This document shows, in pieces, positions 10,456 to 61,712 of a DNA stretch of 64,000 nt. The position numbers and the translations under genes were made by a program. Below the pieces are notes generated by a model. It was not told the DNA's origin. It saw only the letters and a program-made list of their open reading frames with translations, and searched no databases. The stretch lies in contig CAZHDZ010000005.1 in the NCBI GenBank assembly GCA_964531275.1, positions 12,545-76,544 on the forward strand. The letters are read 5' to 3'. The DNA comes from an uncultured Gammaproteobacteria bacterium. Lineage in GTDB: Bacteria > Patescibacteriota > Microgenomatia > Levybacterales > GWA1-39-11. Each line of letters begins with the position of its first letter. Positions within the stretch are counted from its first letter, which is position 1.

Positions 10456-10488
10456 ATGACTTGCGTCAATTTCTGAGTAGGGTTTAGC
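10456..10488 (-). promoter_or_regulatory. Sigma70-like promoter (TTGACG-N18-TACAAT) 5 nt upstream of the vWA-gene ATG, suggesting a leaderless or near-leaderless transcript; two CTAAACCC motifs lie just upstream
   Basis: The minus-strand sequence reads ctaaaccctagaccc..ctaaaccctactcagaaaTTGACGcaagtcattctctgtgacTACAATgatttATG. Coordinates are approximate. Confidence 0.4.
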
Positions 10489-10523
10489 TGTAAAAGGGTC
10501 TAGGGTTTAGATATACTAGAATT

Positions 10524-10892
10524 GTGAAATTAAATTCCTACAAAGACTTGATAGTTTGGCAAAAATCGATGGATTTGGCACGCCAAGTATATCTACTATC
10601 AAAATCTTTTCCAAAAGAAGAAACCTATGGATTAACTTCACAAATAAGACGTGCTGCTGTTTCGATACCTTCAAATATTGCCGAAGGCTATGCAAGGAAA
10701 TCCGTAAAAGAGTATTTACAGTTTTATTCCATTGCTTATGGTTCAACCTTAGAGCTTCAGACCCAATTGATGCTTTGCCATGACTTTAAGTACATCAGTG
10801 ATGGTAACTATAGGAATCTTGAATCTTTAATTGAAGAAGTTTCAAAAATGCTCCATTCTTTAATTTTAAAACTAAACACTAAACCCTCTTGA
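10524..10892 (+). CDS. Four-helix-bundle protein (23S rRNA intervening-sequence-protein family)
   Basis: Family pattern: ...YKDLIVWQKSMDLARQVY...FPKEE.YGLTSQIRRAAVSIPSNIAEGYAR.S.KEY.QF..IA.GS..ELQTQL. Confidence 0.75.
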   Translation: MKLNSYKDLIVWQKSMDLARQVYLLSKSFPKEETYGLTSQIRRAAVSIPSNIAEGYARKSVKEYLQFYSIAYGSTLELQTQLMLCHDFKYISDGNYRNLESLIEEVSKMLHSLILKLNTKPS

Positions 10893-11792: not shown

Positions 11793-11881
11793 GCGTTTAG
11801 ATGAAGAAGCGTATAGCGTTTAGTTATAATACATTAACTAAGACCCTAAACCCTAAAAACTAAACCCTTGAACTATAAACT

Positions 11882-13991: not shown

Positions 13992-14555
13992 ATGGACAGC
14001 CAAATTCAACAACAGACAAGATCCAATATGGAGAAAGCCTTCTCTGTACTGAAAGAAGATTTTGGGACAGTTAAGACTGGGAAGGCAAACCCACAATTAG
14101 TGGAAAATATAGTAATTAATGCGTATGGAGGTACAGCGAAACTAAAGGTACTTGAGCTCGCAACCATTCATGTGCAAGATCACCAGACAATTCTTATTAC
14201 TCCTTTTGATTCATCAGTATTACGTGATATTGAAAAAGGAATTTCAGATAGCCAGATGGGTCTAGGTATTGCTGTAGACGGAACTAATATTCGTGTAAGT
14301 ATTCCACCGTTAACCCAGGAACGACGTGAGGAATTCGTTAAGCTTATTCATAAGAAGGCTGAAAATGGAAAAATAATGATCAGGCAAGCACGACAGGAGT
14401 CAAATGAAGTGATTGGAAAAGCTGAAAAAGATGGAGAAATTTCAGAAGATGATGAGAAAAGGATGGAAAAAGAAGTTCAGAAAATTACTGATGAATACAT
14501 CGCAAAAATAGAAGAGGCTTCAAAGTTGAAAGAGCAGGAACTGATGACAGTCTAA
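13992..14555 (+). CDS. frr: Ribosome recycling factor
   Basis: MDSQ...MEKAFSVLKEDFGTVKTGKANPQLVENIVINAYGG aligns with the E. coli RRF N-terminus, and the C-terminal ISEDDEKRMEKEVQKITDEYIAKIE matches too. The track ORF starts at 13950, but the homologous start is the ATG at 13992. Confidence 0.9.
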   Translation: MDSQIQQQTRSNMEKAFSVLKEDFGTVKTGKANPQLVENIVINAYGGTAKLKVLELATIHVQDHQTILITPFDSSVLRDIEKGISDSQMGLGIAVDGTNIRVSIPPLTQERREEFVKLIHKKAENGKIMIRQARQESNEVIGKAEKDGEISEDDEKRMEKEVQKITDEYIAKIEEASKLKEQELMTV

Positions 14556-14658
14556 ATAAAGCGTTTAGTAAAAAGCGTATAGCGTTCAGGGTTTAGTTTT
14601 TAAATTTTCTTCAACTAAGTACTGCTGCTAACCCCTAATTTTCTAAACCCTAAGTAAT

Positions 14659-15267
14659 ATGAAGATTCCCAGAGCGTTAGAACAAGTTATTGAAGGATTC
14701 GAACGGCTACCCGGTATTGGGCCTAAGTCGGCTCAACGTCTTGGCTTTTATCTTTTGCATGTTCCTCAAAGTGATTTGGATGATTTTGCTTACGCTCTCA
14801 CAAATCTTAAGAAAAATACCAAGATGTGTACTATTTGTTTTAATATAGGTACAACTGATGTTTGTGATGTATGCAGTGATTCCGAGCGCGACACAACTAC
14901 AATTTGTCTTGTAGAAGACGCTTTAGATGTAATAGCATTTGAAAAATCAGATAAATTTAAAGGTGTATATCATGTACTTCATGGAGTAATCGATCCATTA
15001 AATTCAATTGGTCCTGACGACATATATATTCCTCAATTACTCACAAGATTGAAGAATCAAAAGGGTGTTGTTGAAGAAATAATTATTGCTACAAATCCAA
15101 CAATGGAGGGGGAAGCAACTGCAATGTATTTAGTGAAGCAATTGAAGTCGCAATATCCAGAACTTACTATCTCAAGAATTGGAAGAGGGCTGCCAGTAGG
15201 TGCGGATATAGAATATGCTGATGAAGTAACTCTTACGCGAGCCCTCGAAGGAAGAAGCGAGTATTGA
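14659..15267 (+). CDS. recR: Recombination protein RecR
   Basis: HhH (LPGIGPKSAQRL), C4 zinc finger (CTICFNIGTTDVCDVC), Toprim domain. Confidence 0.9.
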   Translation: MKIPRALEQVIEGFERLPGIGPKSAQRLGFYLLHVPQSDLDDFAYALTNLKKNTKMCTICFNIGTTDVCDVCSDSERDTTTICLVEDALDVIAFEKSDKFKGVYHVLHGVIDPLNSIGPDDIYIPQLLTRLKNQKGVVEEIIIATNPTMEGEATAMYLVKQLKSQYPELTISRIGRGLPVGADIEYADEVTLTRALEGRSEY

Positions 15268-15273
15268 GGATGC

Positions 15274-15394
15274 GGGTCCTGCCATGTCTCACTCCCCATT
15301 TACTAAAATATTCACCCACTCTACAAATATAGGAATAGTTGTTCGCTTGTGAAATTTTTTCAATGGGACCCTTTCGACATGTCACCCGTGGGGT
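15274..15394 (+). repeat. Intergenic element copy A (family of at least three homologous elements directly after + strand stop codons)
   Basis: gggtcctgccatgtctcactccccatt...cactctac...tcaatgggaccc..cat..cccgtgggg. Homologous to 22776-22896 and 45514-45575. Confidence 0.55.
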
Positions 15395-15406
15395 ATGTAT
15401 GAAAGC

Positions 15407-17731
15407 TTAAGCGGCGATAGGTGGTGCAGTTGGAGTTCCGGTATTTGGATCTTCAACGGGGGTAGTAGGAATAGTTTCGGATCCAACAGTGCTTAACGGT
15501 GCTCCGCTTATTGCAGCAGCTACTTGCTCAGGAGTTTGAATTTCAGCTGTTGCCCCAGGAAAAGCAGATATGTTATCGGCAGTCGCTGCTGGAGCTTCCG
15601 TGCCAACGAGCGATGGTGCAGCTCCACTAGTTGCTGCGTTTATTTGTGCTGTGCTTTGAACTTCAGGGGTTACTCCTGGAAGTGCAGACATATTGTCTGG
15701 CAATGCAGTAGCAGTAGGTGTTGTTTCTGCAACAGCATCCGTGCCTATGGTTGTAGTGGTGTTAAGATCAGCAGCTATTTCTGGCTGAGTTGTAACTGAC
15801 TGTGTCTCAAGTGTTGCTGCGGGGAAAGGTGTTATATTGCTATTTTCTTCCGCTACATCTGCAGTTGAGGCGTCAGTGGTTACAGATGGGCTTGTCTCTG
15901 AAGTAGTTACCGCTGCAGGTATTGCAGGTTCTGCTGGGGCAGCAATATCTGGAATTGCAGGTAATACATTTCCATCGGGTGCAGTTATTTGAGTGGGGGT
16001 TATCTGGGGTGCTATCTCTTGAGACTGAACTACGTTGGTTGGAGCTGCTTCATTTGGTATTGCTGGATCTGTTACGGTTGCAGAATTTTCAGCTGGAGCT
16101 ATTGCACCGGTTAAATTAGAAGCGCTCCATTGATTTTCATTTGATGGATTTGCATCTGGAAGTGGCGTAGCGATAGCTTCAATTGGGGTATTTCCTGTTG
16201 TATCAGCTGTTGCATTTGCAACTACTTCATTTGCTTGAGCTAAAGTTGGATTCTCAATCGCAGGTGCGGTTGCTCCATCAGCTGGAAGTGCGTCACCTGT
16301 TGCTTCTGCATTTGCCGCAATGTCTGCAGCCTGAGTAAGAACATCAGTAGGAGCTGTGGGTTCTTGTGAACCGGTAATTGTCCCTGCTGTAGAGGTTTCA
16401 GAAAGACTTCCACTTGTTGCCTCAGCATTTGCAACTACTTCATTTGCTTGAGCTAAAGTTGGATTCTCAATCGCAGGTGCGGTTGCTCCATCAGCTGGAA
16501 GTGCGTCACCTGTTGCTTCTGCATTTGCCGCAATGTCTGCAGCCTGAGTAAGAACATCAGGTGCTGCGGCAGCTGGAGCAGCTGGCATTTCTAATGGTTG
16601 TTCTACGGCCAAAGGATCTGGTGTTGGTGCTTGTGCTTCGGGTAGGGCGGAAGCTGTAACGTCAGCGCTTAGAAGACCGTCCACGGGAGGAGTATAGGGA
16701 GGTGCGCTTTCTTCAGAACCCGTTACTGAGAGGGGATCGAGATTTGGTGCTTCATTTTTTGCAGCATTTGCAGCATCTTCTGCTGCGCCCGCGGTTGCGG
16801 CAGCATTTCTATCATAGTCAACTATTTCAGGATGAGCAGCAGCATCTGCTACAGGATCACTTACAGCCTTTGCTGCTTCAATAGGCGTAACGGTACTGTC
16901 AACTGTAGAAGCATCAATGGCAGTTGAAATGGGGGGTGCAACAAGCTCGTTGGATGGGGGTTGCGCGCTGGTACCTGGGAATTCCTGTGCGGGACCTGGA
17001 GCCGGTTCTACATTGAGATTTAATGATTCAGTCGCAGTAGCAGGGTCTGCCGTAGAAGGTGAGGATATTTCGGGAGTAGTCATTGCGGGTTGTTCTATAG
17101 CGGCTGGTGTTGATTCTGTTTTGTTCCAAGCTTCTTCAGCTGTTTTGTGAATCTCATCCATTGCTGCATCTAGTGATCCTGGGGTTCCGGTTGAAGGCGC
17201 ATCTGGAAGTTGTGAATTTCCTCCAAGTACTTTGTTTGCACTTGCTTCAGCAGCTTGAGCTTCTGGTGTTACTCCGGGTACAGGAGGTGTTGAGCCTCCG
17301 GCAAGAGCTGGGGGGACTTCTATTTTTGCTACTTTAGGTTCACCGGGTGCAAATCCCAGTCCTGGGCTCACCTCTGTTTTTGCAGCAACTGCTGTAGCTT
17401 TTGGTGCGTTGGGATCTTCATAAGTCTTTTGGATTGGATTCAGTTTTCCAAGAAATCCAAGGAGGCCACCTTTCTTATTTGGATTTGCTGCAGCTGCAGC
17501 AACTTCATTTGCTTTTTTTTCAGCAATTGCTCCAGGACCTGCGGTTTCGGACATATTGCCACTAGCAAGAACGCTACTAACTCCACCGAGGGAAGGGTTT
17601 TCAAGTGCAGGGGTACCAGTTAAGCTTGCCGCGCCAGCACTGGCTTGATCTAATACGTTTTCGGTTGTGGGTACAACTACTTGAGGGGCTTCTGCAACAG
17701 GAGCACCTCCGTTTGCTAATGGTTCGGACAT
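15407..17731 (-). CDS. 774-aa acidic, Ala/Pro/Thr/Glu-rich low-complexity (probably disordered) protein with an internal exact repeat; no signal peptide
   Basis: A continuous 774-codon ORF in AT-rich DNA. Repeated peptide DVLTQAADIAANAEATGDALPADGATAPAIENPTLAQANEVVANA occurs twice. No TM or signal peptide at the N-terminus. Confidence 0.5.
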   Translation of the reverse strand: MSEPLANGGAPVAEAPQVVVPTTENVLDQASAGAASLTGTPALENPSLGGVSSVLASGNMSETAGPGAIAEKKANEVAAAAANPNKKGGLLGFLGKLNPIQKTYEDPNAPKATAVAAKTEVSPGLGFAPGEPKVAKIEVPPALAGGSTPPVPGVTPEAQAAEASANKVLGGNSQLPDAPSTGTPGSLDAAMDEIHKTAEEAWNKTESTPAAIEQPAMTTPEISSPSTADPATATESLNLNVEPAPGPAQEFPGTSAQPPSNELVAPPISTAIDASTVDSTVTPIEAAKAVSDPVADAAAHPEIVDYDRNAAATAGAAEDAANAAKNEAPNLDPLSVTGSEESAPPYTPPVDGLLSADVTASALPEAQAPTPDPLAVEQPLEMPAAPAAAAPDVLTQAADIAANAEATGDALPADGATAPAIENPTLAQANEVVANAEATSGSLSETSTAGTITGSQEPTAPTDVLTQAADIAANAEATGDALPADGATAPAIENPTLAQANEVVANATADTTGNTPIEAIATPLPDANPSNENQWSASNLTGAIAPAENSATVTDPAIPNEAAPTNVVQSQEIAPQITPTQITAPDGNVLPAIPDIAAPAEPAIPAAVTTSETSPSVTTDASTADVAEENSNITPFPAATLETQSVTTQPEIAADLNTTTTIGTDAVAETTPTATALPDNMSALPGVTPEVQSTAQINAATSGAAPSLVGTEAPAATADNISAFPGATAEIQTPEQVAAAISGAPLSTVGSETIPTTPVEDPNTGTPTAPPIAA
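16212..16560 (-). repeat. Two perfect 136-bp direct repeats (16212-16347 and 16425-16560, period 213 bp = 71 codons) inside the low-complexity CDS
   Basis: The identical string gcatttgcaactacttcatttgcttgagctaaagttggattctcaatcgcaggtgcggttgctccatcagctggaagtgcgtcacctgttgcttctgcatttgccgcaatgtctgcagcctgagtaagaacatcag occurs twice. Confidence 0.85.
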
Positions 17732-17778
17732 ACTTCTAAGTTACAAGAAAATGAGGGTTGTTGTCAATACTTTGGCGC

Positions 17779-18573
17779 TTATTTATTGCCCTTTTTCCAT
17801 GGTGCACTTTGAAGCATTACGCCATAGACGTCGGTTGCAGGATCTATATCCAAGAGGTCTAATTCTTCTTTTGTCGGGGTGTGGTCTTGGAATTGTACAA
17901 AGGGAATATCAGTAACGATAGCAAGAGGGGTTTGTTCTGACGCTTCACCCATAACAACTGCAGCCGCGGCAGCAATTCCATCCATAACGCTTACCGTTGT
18001 CATTTTTAAAATTCTTCCAAATATGTCTGGTTTGCCCTTAAAGTCATTAATTGCAGTAAAACCGCTGTAAGCAATTCCGATACCAGTAATTCCATATCGA
18101 AGTGGTGTGGTTTTGCTATCGGTGATAAGAACGCCGACGTTTTTGAGTCCAAACTTTGTGTGTAGATGGTCACTTATTGTGTTGGCGCTTTCTTGAGCGT
18201 CGGTGGGCCATAAGACAAATTTTCCATCAGAGTTTGACTCATCAATACCGGCATTAACAGCAAGAACATTGTTTTTAATTGTTACAAAGAGATTAAATGT
18301 ATTTCCCTCTTTTGGAAGGTACATGTCAGCTTGCTTGAGGACTAAGTCATCTTTATTAACTTGATCATTTGAGATGACGTTTCCTTCACATATAGCAACA
18401 ATTTTGCTTGTAACGACCAGTATCGAATTCTCAGGAAGATGTGTAACATATTGATCAATTATCTTTAAGATGTCATTATCTTGAGAAGTGATCTTATGAG
18501 TCTTTATTGATGATATATTCATGTGTGAATTGTACATCATTTTGAACTCATTGACAAAATTTCCTGAGCCCAT
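17779..18573 (-). CDS. CofE-like protein (F420-0:gamma-glutamyl ligase family fold)
   Basis: Pattern ...VVTSKIVAICEG...NAGIDESN...GVLITDS..., typical of the CofE/PF01996 family. Function in this lineage is unknown. Confidence 0.6.
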   Translation of the reverse strand: MGSGNFVNEFKMMYNSHMNISSIKTHKITSQDNDILKIIDQYVTHLPENSILVVTSKIVAICEGNVISNDQVNKDDLVLKQADMYLPKEGNTFNLFVTIKNNVLAVNAGIDESNSDGKFVLWPTDAQESANTISDHLHTKFGLKNVGVLITDSKTTPLRYGITGIGIAYSGFTAINDFKGKPDIFGRILKMTTVSVMDGIAAAAAVVMGEASEQTPLAIVTDIPFVQFQDHTPTKEELDLLDIDPATDVYGVMLQSAPWKKGNK

Positions 18574-18584
18574 ATAATCGAACT

Positions 18585-19898
18585 ATGCCGCTTCCTGCCA
18601 GATATCAAAAAGCCGTTCCTGACATTGTAGAAGTTTGGGAGCCAGCTGGATACTTTAAAGCACAAATGGGTATTTGGGCAGCTGTTTGTGAAGCCTCGAG
18701 TGAGCTTAATGGAAAGCCAACAGCAGAAGAACTAACTCAGATTAAGGAAGCGTTGACATTAACACCTCAAGAAATAGTTGAACTATCTGCACCAACAGGT
18801 CATGAGACTAACAAGCTATTGCGAAAAATTCAGGGAAAGCTTTCAGATGAAACTGGCAATTATATTCATCGAGGTAATACTTCAAGTGACGTTTTGGATA
18901 CCAGCATCGCATTACAATCAGTTGAGTCGTTACAGCTGATTGAGCATGAATTTGTAGAGTTAAGAAAAAGTCTATATGTGCTTGCTGTAAAACATAGAGA
19001 TACGCTGCAAATTGCCCGTACTCACGGTCAGCACGCAATCCCTCAAACTTTTGGTAGACAGGTCCTTGGATGGTCCGAGGGTATAACGCGTAGCATAGAA
19101 AGAACTAAGAGGGCACAAGACGTGATAGCTTACGGAAAGTTGTCAGGTGAAGTTGGTACAAATGTTTTTATATCACCAGAGTTGGAAGAATTAGCCCTTA
19201 AGAAGTTGGGACTCAAATCAGAATTAGCTCCGACTCAGGTAATAGGGAGAGATAGACATTTGGAAATGCTTTCTCTTATGACTGTTAATGCTAGATGGCT
19301 CGGAAAAATAGCAAATGATCTTCGTATGCTATGCATGACGGACATTGGAGAAGTTAGAGAGCCATTTGAAGATGACAAGCAAGGATCCAGCGCAATGCCT
19401 CATAAAAGAAATCCGGATGGCCTTGAAAGAGTATTGGGACTTACGAGAGTTGTTGCGGGGGCATCAGAAATAGAGTCTGAGTCGGTGGAGCTGTTATTTG
19501 AAAGAGATATTAGTCATTCATCGGTAGAAAGATTTAGTCTTCCCGATTCTTTTGGGGCTTTGCTATATGCTACTCAGCTGACAAGAAAAATTATTGATGG
19601 TCTTGAAGTCTTCCCCGATAAAATGATAGAAAATCTCGAGAGAACCTACGGGTCAATTTACAGTTCACGACTACTTAATACTTTGCTTGATAAAAATGCA
19701 TTTAGTAGGACTGAAGGTTACGATGTGGTTAAAGAGTTAGCGCAAAAAGCCATAGATACAAGAACGCCTCTTTTAGAAATAGCAACAGTAGATCCTCGGA
19801 TATCATCACATTTTGAAAAAGGAGAGCTTGAGGAGCAGTTTGACCCTACATTTTATCTCAAAAATATAGGTGTGGCTTTTGAAAGAGCAGGTCTATAA
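18585..19898 (+). CDS. purB: Adenylosuccinate lyase
   Basis: GNTSSDVLDT, ARTHGQHAIPQTFG, fumarate-lyase signature GSSAMPHKRNP, ERDISHSSVER and C-terminal YLKNIGVAFERAGL. The whole length aligns with Bacillus PurB. Confidence 0.88.
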   Translation: MPLPARYQKAVPDIVEVWEPAGYFKAQMGIWAAVCEASSELNGKPTAEELTQIKEALTLTPQEIVELSAPTGHETNKLLRKIQGKLSDETGNYIHRGNTSSDVLDTSIALQSVESLQLIEHEFVELRKSLYVLAVKHRDTLQIARTHGQHAIPQTFGRQVLGWSEGITRSIERTKRAQDVIAYGKLSGEVGTNVFISPELEELALKKLGLKSELAPTQVIGRDRHLEMLSLMTVNARWLGKIANDLRMLCMTDIGEVREPFEDDKQGSSAMPHKRNPDGLERVLGLTRVVAGASEIESESVELLFERDISHSSVERFSLPDSFGALLYATQLTRKIIDGLEVFPDKMIENLERTYGSIYSSRLLNTLLDKNAFSRTEGYDVVKELAQKAIDTRTPLLEIATVDPRISSHFEKGELEEQFDPTFYLKNIGVAFERAGL

Positions 19899-19912
19899 GA
19901 CGTAATACATCT

Positions 19913-21103
19913 CTAGAATTTAGGTACTAGAATATTGTCCAAATCAATAAATCCGTGTTTTTGAAGTAATGATGAAAGAATGGGGGACTTTGTGGCATAT
20001 AAGAGTTTTTGGGGATAGTTCTCAAGGATAAGGTTCTCTACCTCATGATAGCCCAAAAGATAAGATGCATCCTTGGGAAATCCACCAGGTTCTGCGGTAT
20101 TTTTCATCCCTCTTTTCACCCTGTATGTCATAACAAAAGCCCGTTTTGAGTCGAGTTCTTCGCTGAGATGGTCATAAATTTCCCGAAAGCTTTTATCTAG
20201 CAATCTGACTGCTTTAATTCTGTTGTAATATATCTCAAAGGCAGACGGAGTAATTTTTCTTGTAGTAATTTCATTGTATACAGCAAGGCCTTCCCCATAG
20301 AGATGCTGATTTCCATATTTCACAAATTCTGACAATGGGGTAGGAGAATTTTTCATGTTTTGGGTTTGGATGGCATGGCTTTCAATTTCATGTACGATAA
20401 GTCTATCCACATTGCATTCAAATCTCTTAACAGCAGCCCCGATGCTTACTGATTTGTAGCCCACGCTTACTATATGTGGGCTGAATTCGTCTACTCTTAC
20501 CTCAAAGTCAGTTAAGTTGTATTTACTGAGTGCCTCAATAAATTTTTCTTTAATTACATATGCATCAACCAGCTTGTGTTCTATGTACATAGTAAATTCC
20601 ACAGCTGGTGTGTTTGCTAAAATTATCTCAAGCCTATCTGTGCCCCAGTCAAATAGCTTGTGTGCATACTCAGAAAATTGACTGGTACCAATAAGCTTTT
20701 TAGTTAAATATAGGTTATTTTGATCTTCAAGAAAGTTAAAAATATGTTCCTTGATGTCATCAGGTACATCAAGCTTATCTACCTTTAATTTAAATCCGTC
20801 GATCATGCTAGAGAAATCTGGAAGATCTGGCTCTCTATAGATATAAATGGGGTTATACGAAGCAGATGAATTAAAAGCATTCATCTCTTCTTGATAATTT
20901 AGGGGTGTAAGAGATGTTGTTCCAAGTCTTAAGGTCTTTTTTATTTCGATTATTTCTTGGGCTAATTCTTGAAGTTGTTGTCTATTACTATCAGTCACAA
21001 GAATATATGGTAGCACTAAGACATTTTTTTGTCTAATGCCTTTTTTACAAAGCTTGCAGGTCAGAAATGTCGCATAAAAGCCAAATCCAATTGATATCTT
21101 CAT
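19913..21103 (-). CDS. DUF1704-family protein (flavohemoglobin expression-modulating 'QEGLA-motif' family; putative Zn-peptidase-like)
   Basis: HEIESHAIQ (HExxH) and YGEGLAVYNE (QEGLA-like motif). The N-terminus lies inside a tandem duplication, so the start is uncertain. Confidence 0.5.
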   Translation of the reverse strand: MKISIGFGFYATFLTCKLCKKGIRQKNVLVLPYILVTDSNRQQLQELAQEIIEIKKTLRLGTTSLTPLNYQEEMNAFNSSASYNPIYIYREPDLPDFSSMIDGFKLKVDKLDVPDDIKEHIFNFLEDQNNLYLTKKLIGTSQFSEYAHKLFDWGTDRLEIILANTPAVEFTMYIEHKLVDAYVIKEKFIEALSKYNLTDFEVRVDEFSPHIVSVGYKSVSIGAAVKRFECNVDRLIVHEIESHAIQTQNMKNSPTPLSEFVKYGNQHLYGEGLAVYNEITTRKITPSAFEIYYNRIKAVRLLDKSFREIYDHLSEELDSKRAFVMTYRVKRGMKNTAEPGGFPKDASYLLGYHEVENLILENYPQKLLYATKSPILSSLLQKHGFIDLDNILVPKF

Positions 21104-21175
21104 TTGAGGTTGGCTTTATAGCATTTATGATAAAAGCCAAATCCAATTGATATCTTCATTTGAGGTTGGCTTTAT
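21074..21175. repeat. Perfect 46-bp tandem duplication (21074-21119 and 21130-21175, 10-bp spacer) spanning the divergent 5' ends of two genes
   Basis: ataaaagccaaatccaattgatatcttcatttgaggttggctttat occurs twice. Copy 1 contains the minus-strand ATG of the DUF1704 gene. Copy 2 contains the TTG at 21147 listed by the ORF track as the start of ORF 21147-22769. Confidence 0.85.
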
Positions 21176-21185
21176 TGCATTCGCC

Positions 21186-22769
21186 ATGTCCACTACATAT
21201 ACTATCTTCATGCAGTTGAATAAGTATTCAGAGAGTCTTATACAAATATTTGAGAAGGCAAAAGAAACTCCGATTGAAAGTGCAAATGCCATAAATCCTT
21301 TGGTTTCAGAGCTTGCATCATGGTATGAAAAATTTAGAAATTCGATTGAATATAGAGATGAGGAGGTAATACTAAGAGCCTCTATAGAGCGAATATTGAA
21401 GAGGCGGTTGGCTCTTGGCGGCAATGGGGCAACAACTGCAAAACCATTACTTAAGGAATTAGTCTGGGCCAGATATTTCCCTGAAAGTCTTTATACGGAA
21501 GACACAATTGCATCTCTTGAAAAGGTAATTAATTTTTACATTCACTTAAAGAGTGAAGTGGTAAAGTCTCAGCAAGTAAAAGAGGGAGACATGCGAGAGT
21601 TAATGTTCCAGCTTATGTCTTCGGATATTGAAGAAATGCTGCATCCAAATAAAGTAGAGGAGGCTGTCGGAAACTACATTTTTCATGTTCTTCAGAAAAG
21701 CATTTCAGCAGTAGAGGCAACTGAAGAGCAGCGTGATATTCAGCTATTTATAGCGATACGCAAGGCATATTCAAAAGATGATCTTGCCTTTTTGAGATAC
21801 AAATTATTTACTCAGTATTTCGGCGAGATGTCTAGGATGGAGGTTTCTGTAGTTGCTGAGCAATTCGGACAGGCACATAAGCAAATAGAAGCGCAACTCA
21901 CCCACCCTGCACGTTTTAAGATTTTAGGTTATGTAAAAAGACAAATTCCGGCCTTCCTAATAATGGAGGATATATTTGCAACACAAACCAATATAAAGGA
22001 GTTAGCAGAGAATGAGGAAGATTTAAATTCAGTAATCAATTCTGCCTGTAAGAAAAAATATAAAACAATTTCTGAAAAAGTACGGCGGGCAATTATCAGA
22101 AGCGTAATATTTATTTTGCTTTCAAAAACAGTAATTGCTTTTGGAATAGAGGGTACCTACGAAAGAGTATTTCTGGGACATATTCAATGGCTGACGCTTG
22201 CATTGAATGTTATTATCCCGACCATTTTTATGATTGTAGTAGGATTTTCTATCAGGACTCCTGGTGAGAAGAATTCAAGGCTAATACTTACTAGAATTCA
22301 CTCACTTCTTTTTAGCGAAGATCCAAAAATTGGAAGAACATTAGCTTTTCCATCTTCTGAGAAAAAACCGAGAAGTGTAATTGAAGGAGTTTTTGGTATT
22401 CTTTGGGTTGCTGCATTTCTTTTGAGCTTTGGTGCTATATCTTTAGGTCTTTCACTCTTAGGATTTTCGGCAGTAAGCCAGGCAATTTTTATATTCTTTT
22501 TGGCAATTGTAAGTTTCCTTGCATATCGCATCAATATTACCGCTCATGAATATAGCGTTGAGAATAGTCAGGGAATTTTGACTCCGATAGTGGATTTCTT
22601 TTTCATGCCTATTGCAAGGGTTGGACAATACTTAACCGCGGGTATCTCTCAAGTGAATATATTCTTATTTATATTGGATTTTCTCATAGAGGCCCCGTAC
22701 AAAGGACTCGTGGGATTCTTTGATCAGTGGTTCTTCTTCTTGCATAACAAGAGGGAAGAGATAGGCTGA
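21186..22769 (+). CDS. Hypothetical protein: ~330-aa soluble N-terminal domain plus C-terminal multi-TM domain
   Basis: Long ORF. C-terminal hydrophobic helices (VIFILLSKTVIAFGI, WLTLALNVIIPTIFMIVVGF, GVFGILWVAAFLLSFGAISLGLSLLGF...). The track start is a TTG at 21147; the first ATG is at 21186. Confidence 0.5.
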   Translation: MSTTYTIFMQLNKYSESLIQIFEKAKETPIESANAINPLVSELASWYEKFRNSIEYRDEEVILRASIERILKRRLALGGNGATTAKPLLKELVWARYFPESLYTEDTIASLEKVINFYIHLKSEVVKSQQVKEGDMRELMFQLMSSDIEEMLHPNKVEEAVGNYIFHVLQKSISAVEATEEQRDIQLFIAIRKAYSKDDLAFLRYKLFTQYFGEMSRMEVSVVAEQFGQAHKQIEAQLTHPARFKILGYVKRQIPAFLIMEDIFATQTNIKELAENEEDLNSVINSACKKKYKTISEKVRRAIIRSVIFILLSKTVIAFGIEGTYERVFLGHIQWLTLALNVIIPTIFMIVVGFSIRTPGEKNSRLILTRIHSLLFSEDPKIGRTLAFPSSEKKPRSVIEGVFGILWVAAFLLSFGAISLGLSLLGFSAVSQAIFIFFLAIVSFLAYRINITAHEYSVENSQGILTPIVDFFFMPIARVGQYLTAGISQVNIFLFILDFLIEAPYKGLVGFFDQWFFFLHNKREEIG

Positions 22770-22775
22770 TATAAC

Positions 22776-22896
22776 GAGTCCTGTCATGTCTTTTCCCCAT
22801 TGTCGAGTCTCACCATTTGTGCTCTACTTGTTTAACTTTTTCATTGATCGTTTGCTCATGTTCTCAATTGGGTCCCTAACTTGCATTACCCACAGG
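22776..22896 (+). repeat. Intergenic element copy B
   Basis: gagtcctgtcatgtcttttccccatt...gctctac...tcaattgggtccc..cat..cccacagg. Begins 7 nt after the stop at 22769. Confidence 0.55.
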
Positions 22897-22915
22897 AAAT
22901 AGGAGTACGATTTGC

Positions 22916-23791
22916 TTAAAAGATAAGGAGAATGACGCCGGCAAGCATAATAATTGTTGCGACAAGGCGACTTAGTATATTTTTTTCTTTCAAAAGCACT
23001 CCTCCGAAAACAACTGTAATTAGCGTTGATAATTTAAAAACGGCATTTGGATATGCAACATTTGTCAAAGAGAATGCAGTAAAAGCTGCAAATTGAGAAG
23101 CTGCTCCTAGTATGCCAAGCAATAGAAATAGTGGACTATATTTTTTTATTGTTGGAATAGATATTTTTTGCTTTTTAAGAAGAATGATTAAAAGTAAAAT
23201 TCCAAATATACCTATTGAGTTTACGACCGAAATGTAGGCTGGGGTTTGTGGAAATGTGGCAAGAACTGCTTGTTTTTGGAAAATTGGGGTGAGTGACCAT
23301 ATAAAATTGGCAAGAAGGAAGAGCTGTGCTCCACGATCAAATATCACGTCCTGAATTGGTCTTAAAAATCCCTTTCTAATGTCTTTTAAATTAAGAACAT
23401 ATACTCCGATAACAATTAAGACAATTCCAAATAATTTTACAGGGGTGGGAATTTCTTTAAACAAAATTGCATTAAAAATTAGAGTAAAAACAGGAAGAAA
23501 AGATGACAACGGTACAATGAGTGAAAGATCTGAAAGTTGAATCCCTTTAATAGAACAGATAAACGCAACTACATCAAGCCCAATAGAAAGTATCATGAAA
23601 AAATGAAAGCTAGATGAGACGATTGGTGCACCGCCTAAAAAGAGGAGGAGCAATATGTCAAAAGGAATAATAAAGCCAAAATATAGTATTAAAAATCTAA
23701 GCGGAGAAACTTCTTTGGAAATTTTTTTCGTGAGAATGTTTGTGGTAGAGCTTGATGCTGCCACAAACAATGAAAGAAAAAACCAGAGCAT
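22916..23791 (-). CDS. EamA/DMT-superfamily transporter (10 TM)
   Basis: Two repeated 5-TM halves with hydrophobic helices throughout, typical of the EamA family. Confidence 0.55.
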   Translation of the reverse strand: MLWFFLSLFVAASSSTTNILTKKISKEVSPLRFLILYFGFIIPFDILLLLFLGGAPIVSSSFHFFMILSIGLDVVAFICSIKGIQLSDLSLIVPLSSFLPVFTLIFNAILFKEIPTPVKLFGIVLIVIGVYVLNLKDIRKGFLRPIQDVIFDRGAQLFLLANFIWSLTPIFQKQAVLATFPQTPAYISVVNSIGIFGILLLIILLKKQKISIPTIKKYSPLFLLLGILGAASQFAAFTAFSLTNVAYPNAVFKLSTLITVVFGGVLLKEKNILSRLVATIIMLAGVILLIF

Positions 23792-23800
23792 GAAGAGTTC

Positions 23801-24136
23801 TTATTTAATGTCCAGTAGTTCTACTTCGAAGTAAAGATCAGCAAGCGGTGGTATTACATTTCCTGCGCCTTCTTCACCATAAGCCATTGTGTAGGGGATA
23901 AATAGTTTTCTTTTCCCTCCAACTTTCATTCCAGGAACGCCTTCGTCCCATCCTCTTATTACATGTCCAACTCCTATTTTTGTTTCAAAGGGAAAGCCCT
24001 TATCAATAGATGAATCAAATTTTTCACCGTCTTCAAATGTTCCAACGTAATGAATAACTATAGTGTCTCCTTCTTTCACTTCGCGGCCTGTTCCAACAAC
24101 GAGGTCTTCAATTTTGAGTTCTGGGGGACGTGCCAT
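23801..24136 (-). CDS. FKBP-type peptidyl-prolyl cis-trans isomerase
   Basis: GDTIVIHYVGTFEDGEKFDSS...GVGHVIRGWDEGVPGMKVGGKRKLFIPYTMAYGEEG...LYFEVELLDI. Confidence 0.85.
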   Translation of the reverse strand: MARPPELKIEDLVVGTGREVKEGDTIVIHYVGTFEDGEKFDSSIDKGFPFETKIGVGHVIRGWDEGVPGMKVGGKRKLFIPYTMAYGEEGAGNVIPPLADLYFEVELLDIK

Positions 24137-35797: not shown

Positions 35798-35850
35798 GAG
35801 TCCTTTCATCTCTACTCATTGTAACTCTTTCATTGATTCCTTACTATTCT
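35798..35850 (+). repeat. Possible degenerate copy D of the intergenic element family
   Basis: gagtcctttcatctctactcatt...tttcattgat resembles copy B (gagtcctgtcatgtcttttccccatt...tttcattgat). Confidence 0.3.
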
Positions 35851-36141: not shown

Positions 36142-36154
36142 GAAAGGAGGTTAT

Positions 36155-36355
36155 ATGCCAAAGTATAGTAAAAAGGCCCAAGACAAAATTTCAGATGTTA
36201 TGCATGAATTTGGAGAAGGCAAGTTAAAATCTGGCAATAGCAACAAAAAAGTTACAAGTCGAAAGCAGGCCATTGCTATTGGAATTTCTGAAGCTCGTGA
36301 AAAAGGACTAAAAGTGCCACGTGACACAAAGATTGGAAGACATATATCAGGCTAA
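36155..36355 (+). CDS. Small conserved basic protein (GEGKLKSG...SRKQAIAIGISEAR motif)
   Basis: Strong SD (aaggagg) 7 nt upstream. A short conserved-looking motif; family name uncertain. Confidence 0.45.
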   Translation: MPKYSKKAQDKISDVMHEFGEGKLKSGNSNKKVTSRKQAIAIGISEAREKGLKVPRDTKIGRHISG

Positions 36356-45513: not shown

Positions 45514-45575
45514 TCTGCCGGATTGCACTCCCCGTATTCAAAATTTCGTTGCATTTCACTCATCTCTCATACATC
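45514..45575 (+). repeat. Intergenic element copy C
   Basis: ctgccggattgcactccccgtattcaaaat...tcactcatctctcatac parallels copy A ctgccatgtctcactccccatttactaaaat...tcacccactctac. Lies about 40 nt after the stop at 45475. Confidence 0.5.
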
Positions 45576-45644
45576 CGCGCATAACCGCCACTTTTATTGT
45601 TATTAAATTTTCCTTGAAATGACGAAACCCCCAAGAATGAAAAA

Positions 45645-45857
45645 GTCTTTCTTAGCGTAGCCAAGAGATAAATTGAGAATCAATTTTTCTTACACGTAGT
45701 CAAGAAGTAAATTCTGAAAGAATTTCTTCTTATACGAAGCAAAGCGCAGCTTTGTGAAGTAAAGAAATTGTCTTTCTTAGCGTAGCCAAGAGATAAATTG
45801 AGAATCAATTTTTCTTACACGTAGTGAAGAAGTAAATTCTGAAAGAATTTCTTCTTA
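45645..45857 (+). repeat. Two 88-bp direct repeats (45645-45732 and 45770-45857; 1 mismatch) in a 698-bp intergenic region upstream of the OmpR-type response regulator
   Basis: gtctttcttagcgtagccaagagataaattgagaatcaatttttcttacacgtagt(c/g)aagaagtaaattctgaaagaatttcttctta occurs twice. Each copy contains the reverse complement of the CTTGGCTACGCTAAG 15-mer seen upstream of hxlR, and multiple TTCTTAC heptamers. Confidence 0.85.
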
Positions 45858-46118
45858 CAATTTTCTTACCTATTCTTACAATTTCATTAACCTTTCAAAA
45901 CTAACATGTATGTATGTCACAAATACGACATCAAAGACACTATCAAGCAATGTATATTCCTAAGTCACAAAGACAAAAAGAGAAGTCATTTTTAGGAGTA
46001 GCATTTGAAGTCGAGAAGCCAGTACATAACCTTGTAAAGAGTTTTTGGAATGTTCTGAGCTCACCGGTTGATCCTGTGAGCAGAAAAAACTAAATTTAGG
46101 GGCACAGACAGGGTGATT

Positions 46119-46173: not shown

Positions 46174-46839
46174 ATGATATATAAAGTTTTAGTAGTTGAA
46201 GACGATCCGAATATTCGGGAATTTCTATTAGATGCTCTTAAGGAGTCTGGTTATAGTGTAACCGGAACACCCGATGGTGCAAAGGCCATTAAGATGGTTA
46301 AAGATGCCAAGCCAGATCTTGTAGTTCTTGATCTTGGACTAGAAAGTATAGCGGGTGAGACGGTATGCGAAGAGGTTAAGAAAATGCACCCGGATTTGCC
46401 AATAATAATTCTTACGGCAAAAAATACCTCCCGTGAAGTCGTGAGGGGATTTGATCTTGGAGCAGATGACTATATTTCAAAGCCATTCGAAATCGATGAG
46501 CTTTTGGCTCGCGTCAGAACAAGGCTTAAGCAACAGGGAACTCCAGTCCTTGAAATAGGAGATTTAACCGTAAATACCTCAACATATGATGTAAAAAGAG
46601 GGAATAAAGATATTCCGCTTACTGCAAAGGAATTTAAGCTACTTGAGTATCTAATTATTAATAAAGGGGCAGTTCTTTCTCGGGAAGCAATACTAGACCA
46701 CATATGGCTATACTCACCCGAAATAGAAAGTAGAGTAGTTGATGTATATATCGGATACCTCAGAAAAAAAATTGACTCAGGGCACGAGCAGAAGCTTATA
46801 AAAAGTGTGAGAGGCTTTGGATATACAATCAGAGAATAA
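46174..46839 (+). CDS. OmpR-family response regulator (REC + winged-helix)
   Basis: VLVVEDDPNIREFL...DLVVLDLGL REC domain with conserved Asp. C-terminal trans_reg_C (LTAKEFKLLEYLIINKGAVLSREAILDHIW). Confidence 0.9.
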   Translation: MIYKVLVVEDDPNIREFLLDALKESGYSVTGTPDGAKAIKMVKDAKPDLVVLDLGLESIAGETVCEEVKKMHPDLPIIILTAKNTSREVVRGFDLGADDYISKPFEIDELLARVRTRLKQQGTPVLEIGDLTVNTSTYDVKRGNKDIPLTAKEFKLLEYLIINKGAVLSREAILDHIWLYSPEIESRVVDVYIGYLRKKIDSGHEQKLIKSVRGFGYTIRE

Positions 46840-56439: not shown

Positions 56440-57530
56440 GTTCTTTAAAAATCTGTTATTTTTCGGCGAGAGCAAATTGAGGTAAAAGATTGCCTGCGTT
56501 TGCGCTCGCCGGAAAGGATGAGCGGAAAGAAGGAGGTTGGGTTGACAAAAAAACCCTCACGTCGTCCTTGGCTTGCGCTCCTGGTTGCCGTGTTCATCGC
56601 GGCTACTGCAGGTGCAGGCCCGCTGGCAACCGCCAGCGCAGTACCGGTCAGTGACCCTAGGGTCACCCCTGGCTGTAACGGCCAGGATGACTTCGGGTTC
56701 GCATATACGGCGTTCGCGACAGGAGTAATTACCAACAAGGGCACGGCAACGTGCTCGGTATACTTCCTCGCGTACAACACGTACGATTGCGCGCCTATCA
56801 GCCAGTGTGGTAAGGGTCAAGATCTGGTCGGCACTGCCGGCCCCGTGACCCTGAAGCCGGGATCGTCTGTCACGCTAGTCGTGAACGTTCCTAACAGCGT
56901 GTGCAAGCTCCAATTCGATCCCCTCGTGGGATGGTTGGGAGCTCCACTCGGACACCTCGCAGGTGGTGCAGAGTATGGCACTGAAATGCTTGCACAAGGA
57001 GTCGGCATTACTGCTGACAATCCCAACTGCAGGCAGCCAACACCGACCCCGCCACCGCCAACACCTACGCCGGTTCTGACACCGTCGCCGACGGCAACGC
57101 CTACGTTGCCACCGCCGCCGACTCCGACGTCGCCTCCGCCTACCGCGACCCCATCGGCCACGCCGACGGGAACACAGTCGCCCACCGCGACACCATCGGC
57201 TACGCCGACTGGTACGCAGGTACCGCCCACGGCAACGCCTACGTTGCCACCGACCCAGGGTCCAACGACCCCACCGACGGCAACGCCGGTTGTAACTGCT
57301 CCACCGAGTAATGTTCCGAAGCCGCCGAGTGCGGGTACGGGCATGATCGAGTTGATGTCGACCCCTGTTGGGGCTGGCTTCCTACTCATGATGGTGGGTG
57401 CAATTGCCGCTGCGCTTACTATCGGTTTTGGCTTCGGCCAGGGACGTAGGTCCAAGAGGTAGCGTTCATCCAGGCAGATCTTTTCCGGCGCCCGTGGCTT
57501 CATAGCTGCGGGTGCCGGACCTTTTAACAA
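56440..57530 (+). other. High-GC island 1 (about 1.1 kb, visibly about 60-65% GC against a flanking genome near one-third GC) carrying one gene
   Basis: Abrupt composition change at about 56460-56490 and about 57525. All six frames are open in this stretch, a high-GC artefact. Confidence 0.8.
56500..57462 (+). CDS. Foreign-composition secreted protein: signal peptide, Cys-containing beta-sandwich-like domain, Pro/Thr-rich linker, C-terminal hydrophobic anchor + basic tail (GRRSKR)
   Basis: Signal peptide ...WLALLVAVFIAATAGAGPLATASA. PTPTPPPPTPTPVLTPSPTATPTLPPPP... linker. C-terminus GAGFLLMMVGAIAAALTIGFGFGQGRRSKR. High-GC codon usage. SD aaggagg. Confidence 0.6.
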   Translation: MRSPERMSGKKEVGLTKKPSRRPWLALLVAVFIAATAGAGPLATASAVPVSDPRVTPGCNGQDDFGFAYTAFATGVITNKGTATCSVYFLAYNTYDCAPISQCGKGQDLVGTAGPVTLKPGSSVTLVVNVPNSVCKLQFDPLVGWLGAPLGHLAGGAEYGTEMLAQGVGITADNPNCRQPTPTPPPPTPTPVLTPSPTATPTLPPPPTPTSPPPTATPSATPTGTQSPTATPSATPTGTQVPPTATPTLPPTQGPTTPPTATPVVTAPPSNVPKPPSAGTGMIELMSTPVGAGFLLMMVGAIAAALTIGFGFGQGRRSKR

Positions 57531-60329: not shown

Positions 60330-61090
60330 ATTCATGCTCAATCCGTGTGATAGAGAAAAGCGTACATTTACAAGGAATCCATACAAGGCTTTCTCATTGG
60401 AGAGATATCGTCTCTGACGAGAAAGCCTTTGTATCCGATACTGACAAAGGTGGAGGAAGTTCATGCCAGAAAAGCGGTGTAGGCTGCTTATTGTGGGATG
60501 CGCTATTATAGCGATCATCCTTGCGACTATTGTCATGCAGGACTCACCTGCGGGGAATGAGAAAGAAGTTGATGTCGAAGACATCTACGCAACCCTCATC
60601 CCAGAACCACCACGCCAACTCACAGGTACGTACTGTGACCAGCTGCGCCAATATGTGCCGCAGGACGAAGCTGAAGCCATGAAATGGGCGGAAGCACTCA
60701 TTCGCGGCAACGCGAAGGGGCGCATCCTCATCATGAGGTTCATCTGCGGCAAAGACGACAAGGCCATTTATGGCTTTGCAATCCATCCCGGAGATGAGAT
60801 TGTAACCCTCATCCCCGCTCGCGGGGAAGTAATGGGTGCAACCGTCGAAATGACACTGCTTGACGGCTACGTCATATCCGGGACTACAACAAGAAGATCT
60901 AAGCCGGGCCAGAAGCCCGTGCCCGAGATTATTCTCGTCGCTGGCGGACCAGGCAAGGTCATCGGTACATCCTACGTTGTCAGCTTTCTGAGCGACGACA
61001 AATATCGGTAAGGATTTCATTGCTGCAAATGGGGTACCCTCAAGGGTGCGGCACTTCGGACTTTCCGAGGAAAACCCCACTTACTAAATT
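60330..61090 (+). other. High-GC island 2 (about 0.75 kb, visibly about 55% GC, clearly above flanking DNA near one-third GC) carrying one gene
   Basis: Composition shift relative to the flanks. A GC-rich hairpin (ttcggactttccgagg) follows the gene. Confidence 0.7.
60463..61011 (+). CDS. Foreign-composition hypothetical membrane-anchored protein
   Basis: N-terminal hydrophobic segment (LLIVGCAIIAIILATIVM; possible lipobox IVGC). Strong SD aaaggtggagg. High-GC codon usage. Confidence 0.5.
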   Translation: MPEKRCRLLIVGCAIIAIILATIVMQDSPAGNEKEVDVEDIYATLIPEPPRQLTGTYCDQLRQYVPQDEAEAMKWAEALIRGNAKGRILIMRFICGKDDKAIYGFAIHPGDEIVTLIPARGEVMGATVEMTLLDGYVISGTTTRRSKPGQKPVPEIILVAGGPGKVIGTSYVVSFLSDDKYR

Positions 61091-61124
61091 TCATTCACCT
61101 TTTGAATTCTGATACACTGTATAT

Positions 61125-61712
61125 ATGAATAAGTTGAAAATAGCTCTAATAATCCTTTTCCCTATCTTAGCAATAGGGGTGCTAGGGTTTTTCCTATCCT
61201 CTGCATTCAAACAAAAATACAACGATAGAGCAGTGATTGAAAAAATTAGGAATCTAAATCGTTGGGAAACAGCTTCTTATTCAATCGAAAAGATAATTGA
61301 TAAAGGGGAGAGTGGAAATGTCTTTCAAAGAGTTCTTTTTGGGAATAGAATTCTTCTAATTGCTCATGGGGAAGTCGTAGGCGGCTTTGATTTTGCAAAT
61401 CTAACTGAAGATAGTGTAAAAGTTGAAGGTAAATCAATTGTGATCAATTTCCCTCCTCCAGCAATACTTTCAACAAGCCTTAACGAATCCGAAACGCGTG
61501 TATATGATAGACAGCAAGGTCTTCTCGTAGGATCAGATAATAATTTAGAAAGCGATGCCAGAATCGAGGCTGTGAATGCAATACGAGCAGCTGCATGCAG
61601 TGGTGGGATACTTACAACTGCAGGTGAAAACGGACGAAAACAAATAACATCAATATTGACTGCATTTGGATTTGAAAAGATTACTGTCAACATCCCAGGT
61701 GGGAGTTGTTAG
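61125..61712 (+). CDS. DUF4230-like membrane-anchored protein
   Basis: N-terminal TM and ~180-aa extracytoplasmic domain. Pattern is reminiscent of DUF4230. Confidence 0.45.
   Translation: MNKLKIALIILFPILAIGVLGFFLSSAFKQKYNDRAVIEKIRNLNRWETASYSIEKIIDKGESGNVFQRVLFGNRILLIAHGEVVGGFDFANLTEDSVKVEGKSIVINFPPPAILSTSLNESETRVYDRQQGLLVGSDNNLESDARIEAVNAIRAAACSGGILTTAGENGRKQITSILTAFGFEKITVNIPGGSC

Follow-up and report, generated by a model that had tools for sequence, protein, structure and literature searches.

The stretch of DNA analyzed here (the window; 64,000 nucleotides [nt] of contig CAZHDZ010000005.1, assembly GCA_964531275.1) raises the question of what two similar non-coding segments are, one behind recR (copy A) and the other behind the gene of a 540-amino-acid (aa) membrane protein (copy B). 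The window RecR and its neighbors match metagenome-assembled genomes of Candidatus Levybacteria (Microgenomates, Patescibacteria/candidate phyla radiation [CPR]), RecR being at most 83% identical to its counterparts in species-representative genomes and at most 88% identical to those in a large protein collection. The genome is compact: most of the 14 convergent gene pairs in the window are spaced by 0 to 20 nt, the 188 convergent pairs in related loci have a median gap of 3 nt, and the convergent gaps holding A and B, at 139 and 146 nt, are unusually long. The original prediction had described three homologous copies placed behind stop codons of + strand genes and a weaker fourth one, and it had offered a small RNA family, a 3′-end or termination module, and a miniature mobile element as explanations. 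The reading we favor, with evenly balanced confidence, is that A and B are copies of an uncatalogued, lineage-specific structured small RNA of Levybacteria that would work through a protein-binding basal helix and whose gene relocates. The four predicted segments are the following.

15267 to 15397, + strand: copy A, an intact hairpin element (core 15272 to 15389) that fills the gap between recR and a low-complexity gene
22769 to 22901, + strand: copy B, the same element in degenerate form, flanked by the 540-aa gene and an EamA gene
45514 to 45575, + strand: claimed copy C, a non-member without hidden Markov model (HMM) or covariance-model match
35798 to 35850, + strand: claimed weak fourth copy (D), a non-member without HMM or covariance-model match

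Seen from the window alone, the similarity of A and B is borderline and not clearly above chance. Their positions were confirmed, and both carry the shared block GTCCTGyCATGTCT(2-3 nt)TCCCCATT, which starts 8 nt past the stop codon in each. The local alignment of A with B scored 29, against 16 ± 2.4 for shuffled sequences, 3 of 2,000 of which reached 29. This score ties for ranks 5 to 8 among 1,122 comparisons of intergenic regions in the window, and when the whole set was shuffled, a score of 29 was reached ~0.7 times per set versus 8 times in the observed data. The corresponding E values were 0.15 by blastn and 0.44 and 14 by nhmmer; among real intergenic regions of the relatives, 1.9% of the pairs scored at least 29, and 0.1% did so at the same offset. 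Folded as single sequences, A and B were no more stable than shuffles (z values from −1.5 to +1.6), and scans of the window with Rfam (gathering score) and for tRNAs gave nothing at either copy. Chance similarity, which could not be rejected from the window alone, was ruled out by homologues from other genomes.

The EamA gene beside B has homologues of 77 to 79% identity, including one on contig L116 (GCA_964511305.1; an identical sequence is present in L118), where a gap of 135 nt at the site of B is 77% identical to A and 70% identical to B. A profile built from A, B, and L116 matched L111, a JGI contig whose RecR is 88% identical to that of the window and in which the element again lies directly after recR (E = 4.5e-34), as well as L120 and L121, whose copy occupies the divergent gap ahead of a rhodanese gene (E = 9.5e-19). 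When the profile was built from L111, L116, and L120 only, it gave E values of 1.7e-30 for A and 4.8e-9 for B, and the best remaining match in the window had an E value of 1.8. Since these outside sequences match both segments, the homology of A and B is established. Furthermore, a derived apex (TTTTTyATTGATCG), missing from A, L111, and L120, is common to B and L116, which identifies these two as orthologues at one site and A and L111 as orthologues at another.

More distant members were found with covariance models. The first model (R1), built from the five AT-rich copies only (A, B, L111, L116, and L120), scored A at 136.6 bits and B at 86.9 bits in a run with filters off, and it found full-length members with a GC content of 0.5 to 0.64 in L015, L017, L024, L080, and L044 at E values from 2.5e-7 to 1e-2 in 1.39 Mb. 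A second model (R2) scored A at 126.7 bits and B at 84.6 bits, added L031 and L030, and gave the GC-rich members 46 to 64 bits. The seven GC-rich members come from more distant Levybacteria, and the family totals 12 copies. The further copies and the covariation, on which the original prediction had been staked, were thus both found in relatives. Of its three to four window members, two stood, namely, A and B, the latter decaying (see below), and two fell away: copy C was unmatched by nhmmer and by the unfiltered covariance model and has no relative in any compared locus, and segment D was likewise unmatched by both and resembles B over no more than 23 AT-rich nt (score 24). Pairwise scores of C and D against A or B range from 18 to 24.

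Hairpin anatomy, covariation, and selection

The element is a single long imperfect hairpin of ~125 nt (98 to 133 nt across the 12 copies), in which the base, 5′-GGGUCCUGnC...GnCACCC-3′, is invariant and common to all copies and the apex is variable. From the base upward, P1 ((C)GGG/CCC(G)) is followed by a UCC bulge, P2a (UG/CA), a 1x1 mismatch, and the 6-bp P2b; above P2b come an internal loop of ~5 by 7 nt, P3 (7 bp), P4 (6 bp), P5 (2 to 3 bp), and the apex. Internal loops are small, at 1 to 8 nt, and within columns 7 to 22 of the 12-copy alignment, G8 to G10, U14, G15, and C17 vary little or not at all. In copy A the parts are placed as listed here.

15273 to 15288, + strand: 5′ basal arm, with P1 CGGG (15273 to 15276), the UCC bulge (15277 to 15279), P2a UG (15280 to 15281), and P2b CAUGUC (15283 to 15288)
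15294 to 15368, + strand: upper part, with P3 (15294 to 15300/15362 to 15368), P4 (15304 to 15309/15354 to 15359), and P5 (15314 to 15315/15349 to 15350)
15376 to 15388, + strand: 3′ basal arm carrying GnCACCC, with GACAUG (15376 to 15381), CA (15383 to 15384), and CCCG (15385 to 15388)

The apical region of A (~33 nt) contains two mini-hairpins in the structures from RNAalifold and the covariance model, and A has 26 of 30 Watson-Crick pairs in the five-copy model, or 25 of 29 in the 12-copy alignment. In the five-copy model, A, L111, L116, and L120 keep 25 to 27 of the 30 pairs, against 12 in B, which has lost 18 and whose orthologue in L116 is intact. For this reason, we regard B as a decaying copy. 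The hairpins of the GC-rich members have stabilities of −30 to −53 kcal/mol.

Pairing is maintained by compensatory change. P2b reads CAUGUC/GACAUG in A and CACGUC/GACGUG in L111 and L116, and the P2 stems of GC-rich members differ from one another yet are complementary in each case (CACGGG/CCCGUG, CAGAAG/CUUCUG, CGCCGG/CCGGCG, and CAGCUG/CAGCUG). In the 12-copy alignment, 86.7% of the cells were paired, versus 40 to 51% when the partners were slid, and double-sided changes occurred at 21 of the 29 pairs (65 cells), with none of 500 shuffles reaching any of these measures. As an independent test, plain MAFFT and RNAalifold recovered the same hairpin from the seven GC-rich copies, with compensatory changes at 11 of 24 pairs. 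A U·G wobble in P4 is kept in 8 of the 12 copies of the first alignment and in 5 of the 7 GC-rich ones of the second. On the opposite strand this pair would be a C·A mismatch, and in DNA it is a mismatch as well, which indicates an RNA of the + strand.

Conservation of the element exceeds that of its surroundings. Comparison of the window recR with that of L111 gave 89% identity for the protein (codon alignment), 78% for the DNA, and 43% at fourfold-degenerate sites, whereas the core of A is 87% identical to its L111 orthologue; the stretch from the hairpin to the following stop codon is far less conserved in this comparison. For B and L116, the 70% identity stands beside 38 to 44% at the fourfold sites of the flanking genes. 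Four copies embedded in dnaX (described below) occupy the same linker, with P2 stems that all differ but remain complementary, in DnaX proteins that are ~50% identical. The decay expected of a neutral insert is not what we observed, given the 87% versus 43% for A and L111 and the compensatory stems; B alone decays. These data indicated that the element is under purifying selection, and of the options offered earlier, a structured RNA family is supported by the covariation, the wobble on the + strand, and this selection.

Filled and empty sites and the dnaX copies

The sites of A and B are flanked by four genes.

14659 to 15267, + strand: recR, directly upstream of A (Pfam Toprim_4, RecR_HhH, and RecR_C)
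15407 to 17731, − strand: a 774-aa low-complexity (Ala/Pro/Thr-rich) gene, convergent with recR
21147 to 22769, + strand: the 540-aa membrane-protein gene, upstream of B
22916 to 23791, − strand: an EamA-family transporter gene (Pfam EamA), convergent with the 540-aa gene

Close relatives show these sites without the element. At the site of A in L110 (RecR 86% identical), L112 to L115 (86%), and L004, the recR stop abuts or overlaps that of the convergent gene, the counterpart of the 774-aa gene, and in L002 and L120 a gap of 24 to 31 nt contains no element. The RecR, 774-aa, and 540-aa proteins all end where their orthologues end; RecR, for instance, terminates in GRSEY* both in the window and in element-less relatives. 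Because the flanking proteins end at the same residues, A is added DNA rather than a former coding remnant, and an origin from truncated flanking genes was rejected on the same ground. At the site of B, L125, L126, L131, and L132 have the EamA gene with a gap of only 5 to 7 nt and no element, so that the element does not travel with EamA; in L110, L120, and L004 the EamA gene is absent altogether. A third site, upstream of the rhodanese gene, is filled only in L120 and L121. Within a single genus-level group, at least three gains of the element, each at a different place, have thus occurred. Intact copies never exceed one per locus in 1.43 Mb: at most one copy was found per locus in the 92 other loci, and the two in the 64 kb of the window are one intact and one degenerate.

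The gap at the site of B has also been filled independently by different DNA, the element in L116 and an unrelated filler of 194 nt in L119 (6877 to 7070), where the ends of the flanking genes are near-identical to those in L116. No relatives of the L119 filler were found, the best match having an E value of 0.09, and it was rejected as a second family.

Four loci, L015, L017, L024, and L031, have the element embedded in the dnaX coding sequence, and its frame is identical in each (...GPvxxFPPxxAxSS...). The embedded copies start 8 to 24 codons past the conserved end of domain III (LPLELxxxEW) and occupy the hypervariable linker ahead of the conserved C-terminal domain of DnaX. The copy of L030 directly precedes dnaX-ybaB-prs-recR, that of L080 lies ahead of ybeY-dnaX, and that of L044 is not at dnaX. 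The placement behind + strand stop codons that had been proposed for the family therefore holds for A and B but does not characterize the family; the stop-codon placement of the two window copies is incidental.

Coding and recombination-related accounts of A and B were tried and rejected. The + strand open reading frames (ORFs) that start at an ATG shared by both copies (22 aa in A and 38 aa in B) are put into different frames by an indel, L111 and L116 have ACG in place of the ATG, and the antisense ORFs run into recR. As for att sites bounding an island between A and B, the intervening genes are syntenic core genes. Cores of integron attC sites (GTTRRRY/RYYYAAC) are lacking at the ends of A and B, whose neighbors are likewise syntenic core genes and not cassettes.

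Competing explanations

A small RNA with these features would be kept stable by its long stem and released from read-through or flanking transcripts, with the + strand of the window as its functional strand. The invariant bulged basal helix would serve as a protein-binding platform, the RNA being the RNA part of a ribonucleoprotein that would act in trans. Its gene would have moved over evolution, standing after recR in the window and L111, in the 540-aa/EamA gap in the window and L116, upstream of the rhodanese gene in L120, upstream of dnaX in L030 and L080, and in the in-frame dnaX linker in L015, L017, L024, and L031; in the genome of the window, A would be the working copy and B a decaying duplicate. 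We favor a functional RNA because of the purifying selection, the compensatory stems, the invariant bulged helix, the U·G wobble, the occurrence of single intact copies, the decay of B, and the base composition of the GC-rich members. Several observations weigh against it. No clear promoter or terminator of its own was found for the element, and its insertion into gaps that measure 0 to 7 nt in sister genomes is the behavior of a mobile element, which is unexpected of an ordinary RNA gene. It is present in 12 of the 93 loci searched, and in 54 others that contain a dnaX-recR cluster, no copy lies within 10 kb, so the element is not universally tied to that cluster and may itself not be universal. 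In addition, the 12-copy alignment behind the figure of 21 in 29 pairs was fitted to the covariance model, and the overall balance of G·U against A·C favors the + strand only weakly (24 versus 17, or 18 versus 11 without B).

The filled and empty sites of close relatives keep one of the options offered earlier, a miniature mobile element, a live rival, one that we consider possible though on the unlikely side. In that case A and B would be a selfish palindromic insertion element resembling the Rickettsia palindromic elements (RPEs), Correia elements, or miniature inverted-repeat transposable elements (MITEs), the arms would be its terminal inverted repeats, and the RNA would have no cellular function. 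Such an element would enter wherever an insert is tolerated, in tiny gaps of convergent gene pairs and, in frame, in a flexible linker of a protein. RPEs are of similar size and shape and are found between genes and in frame within genes of Rickettsia. With these and with MITE-like repeats (Correia/NEMIS, ERIC, and RUP), the element shares an imperfect palindrome of 100 to 150 nt that forms a long hairpin, intergenic as well as in-frame intragenic sites, and a presence that varies among close relatives; by analogy, its behavior appears closest to that of RPEs. Filled and empty states at A (gaps of 0 to 31 nt) and B (gaps of 5 to 7 nt), the occupied third site in L120, the in-frame position inside dnaX in four genomes, two copies within 64 kb, and the unrelated filler in L119, which shows that such gaps accept foreign DNA, all suit an insertion element. 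So do the inverted-repeat arms (ACGGGT...CAyGTC and GAyrTG...ACCCGT), which are the same observation as the RNA stem. In contrast to such repeats, the element has at most one intact copy per locus, and its orthologues are under purifying selection, at 87% against 43% for neutral sites, where a dead insert would decay as B does. The embedded copies keep their pairing through different compensatory stems while DnaX is ~50% identical, and the conserved U·G wobble is a feature of RNA, not DNA. Direct repeats in the flanks of A, B, L111, and L116 are not consistent and go no further than a dinucleotide (TA or TG), the boundaries of the element being ambiguous, so that no target-site duplication is definable, and no transposase was seen nearby. 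Divergence between copies of different genomes is about that of their hosts, with no sign of recent bursts. A functional RNA and a selfish element are not mutually exclusive, since a small RNA that benefits its host could be spread by a transposition-like or RNA-mediated mechanism.

A hairpin acting in cis on mRNA, as a bidirectional terminator or 3′-end stabilizer and, within dnaX, as a modulator of translation at the domain III boundary, is very unlikely. A and B do fill convergent gaps right after stop codons and have the hairpin shape of intrinsic bidirectional terminators, and the GC-rich members are long and stable, as their folding energies show. A short gamma form of DnaX is made near the end of domain III in other bacteria, and the embedded copies begin 8 to 24 codons past that domain. 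Unlike intrinsic terminators, the element has no U-tract behind its stem (the sequence that follows is GGGGUAUGUAUG in A and CAGGAAAUAGG in B), is longer than needed, and conserves its primary sequence strictly, down to bulges and loops, which termination does not need. A terminator scan of positions 14000 to 24000 made no call at A or B, whose folds, moreover, do not surpass those of shuffles; most convergent pairs here and in related genomes need no spacer of this kind, as their median gap shows. The element also stands at places other than 3′ ends, namely, in a divergent promoter region in L120, upstream of genes in L030 and L080, and inside the dnaX frame, where no slippery heptamer precedes it. 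Given these positions and the missing U-tract, an intrinsic terminator was rejected, and the 3′-end or termination module proposed at the outset finds no support.

To a highly divergent signal recognition particle (SRP) RNA of the 4.5S type (ffs; RF00169) we give only the faintest chance. In Bacillus subtilis, the order of genes around the SRP RNA gene is scr-dnaX-yaaK-recR. The SRP RNA gene of Borrelia sits in the slot upstream of dnaX (PMC9879097), and the element occupies the slot directly upstream of dnaX(-ybaB-recR) in L030 and lies upstream of ybeY-dnaX in L080. This synteny is absent from the window, L111, L116, L120, and L044, and the copies of L015, L017, L024, and L031 are inside dnaX. 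Like SRP RNA, itself a lone hairpin of about 80 to 115 nt, the element is a single hairpin of ~100 to 125 nt that is GC-rich relative to the genome, with at most one intact copy per locus. It lacks domain IV, the part bound by Ffh, however, with its GNRA tetraloop, symmetric and asymmetric loops, and GGAAGCAGC-like 3′ strand; a fuzzy scan of all loci for the domain IV motif gave spurious coding matches only. Conservation is strongest at the base of the hairpin in the element and at the apex in SRP RNA, the apex of the element being its least conserved part. Searched with the Rfam SRP models, A, B, L015, and L080 gave nothing up to an E value of 10, and 21 loci gave nothing at the gathering score; R2 had no + strand match to Escherichia coli ffs, the best on the opposite strand reaching 5.3 bits (E = 0.86 in 2 kb). 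SRP RNA was rejected on these grounds. P3-P4 of L015 resembles, by eye, nt 17 to 28 plus 79 to 91 of E. coli 4.5S RNA, in what we presume to be its sequence, and we take this as a lead only.

Other known RNAs did not account for the element either. The Rfam scan called for in the original prediction was run, and no family matches: Rfam 15 had no match at the gathering score in the window or at the element coordinates in 21 related loci, and relaxing the threshold to E ≤ 10 for A, B, L015, and L080 yielded chance matches only (NPPA-AS1_2, GlsR9, and Guanidine-III; 11 to 17 bits). Y RNAs, which bind Ro/Rsr, are alike in having the 5′ and 3′ ends in a long stem, a bulged helix near the base with GGUCC in its 5′ strand, and a variable apex. 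They differ in the motif, which is GGGUCCUG/CACCC in the element versus UGGUCCGA/UUGACU; there was no Rfam Y RNA match, and no rsr/TROVE gene was seen near the element. 6S RNA (150 to 200 nt, with a large central bubble) was rejected in view of the 98 to 133 nt of the element, its internal loops of 1 to 8 nt, and the lack of an Rfam 6S match.

CPR genomes are tiny (~1 Mb) and have almost no spare DNA, and, to our knowledge, descriptions of their non-coding RNAs are few. In this setting stands an element absent from Rfam, under purifying selection, with compensatory pair changes and an invariant bulged helix. As a working small RNA, it would imply an RNA-protein partnership so far unrecognized in these reduced organisms and, in the embedded copies, a rare case of RNA structure conserved inside a translated linker. 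A more specific and distinctly unlikely proposal is that it is the RNA subunit of a lineage-specific CPR ribonucleoprotein whose gene can nest in frame in the linker of an essential protein gene, dnaX, a radically remodeled SRP-type RNA without domain IV being one possibility; the same dnaX DNA would then be selected both as a translated linker and as a folded RNA. If, instead, it is a selfish palindromic element, it would be an RPE-like element in this radiation, from which we know of no earlier report of one.

Neighboring genes and other features of the window

Orthologues of the 540-aa gene were found in L004, L110, L116, and L119. A 56-nt tandem duplication (98% identical) at 21074 to 21181 covers the start and first codons of the minus-strand gene 19913 to 21103, and since 21130 to 21181 is a tandem duplicate, the 540-aa gene probably starts at 21186 rather than at 21147. 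The 774-aa gene contains a perfect 136-nt direct repeat (16212 to 16347 and 16425 to 16560, 213 nt apart), and its length varies widely among relatives, from 448 to 774 aa. In a neighborhood syntenic with that of the 122-aa gene of the window (10524 to 10892), L120 (6277 to 6639) and L125 (5464 to 5838) carry genes of the bAvd/23S-rRNA-intervening-sequence-protein family, and the 122-aa gene may be their counterpart. In diversity-generating retroelements, this family serves as an accessory protein.

The window has no long non-coding convergent gaps besides those of A and B and the 68 nt at 57463 to 57530; the latter hold a GC-rich hairpin (CCGGCGCCCG...CGGGTGCCGG) that resembles a conventional terminator, unlike A and B. 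The convergent gap at 36142 to 36351 contains an unlisted ORF of ~65 aa, beginning MPKYSKKAQDKISDVMHEFGEGKLKSG with GAAAGGAGG ahead, and is therefore not non-coding.

The top intergenic similarities in the window (scores of 34 to 38) are those among 10482 to 10518, 11793 to 11881, and 14561 to 14658, which lie upstream of the 122-aa gene at 10524, tsf, and recR. At one side they share repeated GCGTTTAG/GGGTTTAG motifs and at the opposite side CTAAACCC(T), in inverted copies; these may form a hairpin or be bound by a regulator. At 45636 to 45895, a 125-nt tandem duplication (96% identical) is followed by TTCTTAC repeats with an 11-nt period, 280 to 540 nt upstream of an OmpR/PhoB-type response-regulator gene (46174 to 46839); direct-repeat binding sites appear to be arrayed here. 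A block related to these repeats, 21 to 23 nt long (CTTAC..AATTTCATTmACCTTT), recurs at 61080 to 61102.

The latter lies within 61012 to 61124, upstream of the gene at 61125 to 61712, a region with an inverted repeat of its own (AAATGGGGT ... ACCCCACTT). It shares 23 nt with A (CCCCAyTTACTAAA..ATTCACC, score 29; 61075 to 61099), and since no family profile matches it, this similarity was treated as chance and the segment rejected as a member.

A metagenome scan with the pattern GTCCTGnCATGTCTn2-4CCCCAT gave 27 matches and no homologue. Nineteen loci (20 matches), all from samples Ga0137403-08, belong to a dispersed repeat that is unrelated and apparently of eukaryotic origin, and the other 8 matches fall on unrelated high-GC contigs or, in L097, within a coding gene. 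The dispersed repeat (JGI loci L082 to L085, L088 to L090, L092 to L096, L098, L099, L101 to L104, and L107) is ~150 nt long, is preceded by (GT)n microsatellites, and sits on contigs of 42 to 54% GC, with the look of a short interspersed element in soil metagenomes.

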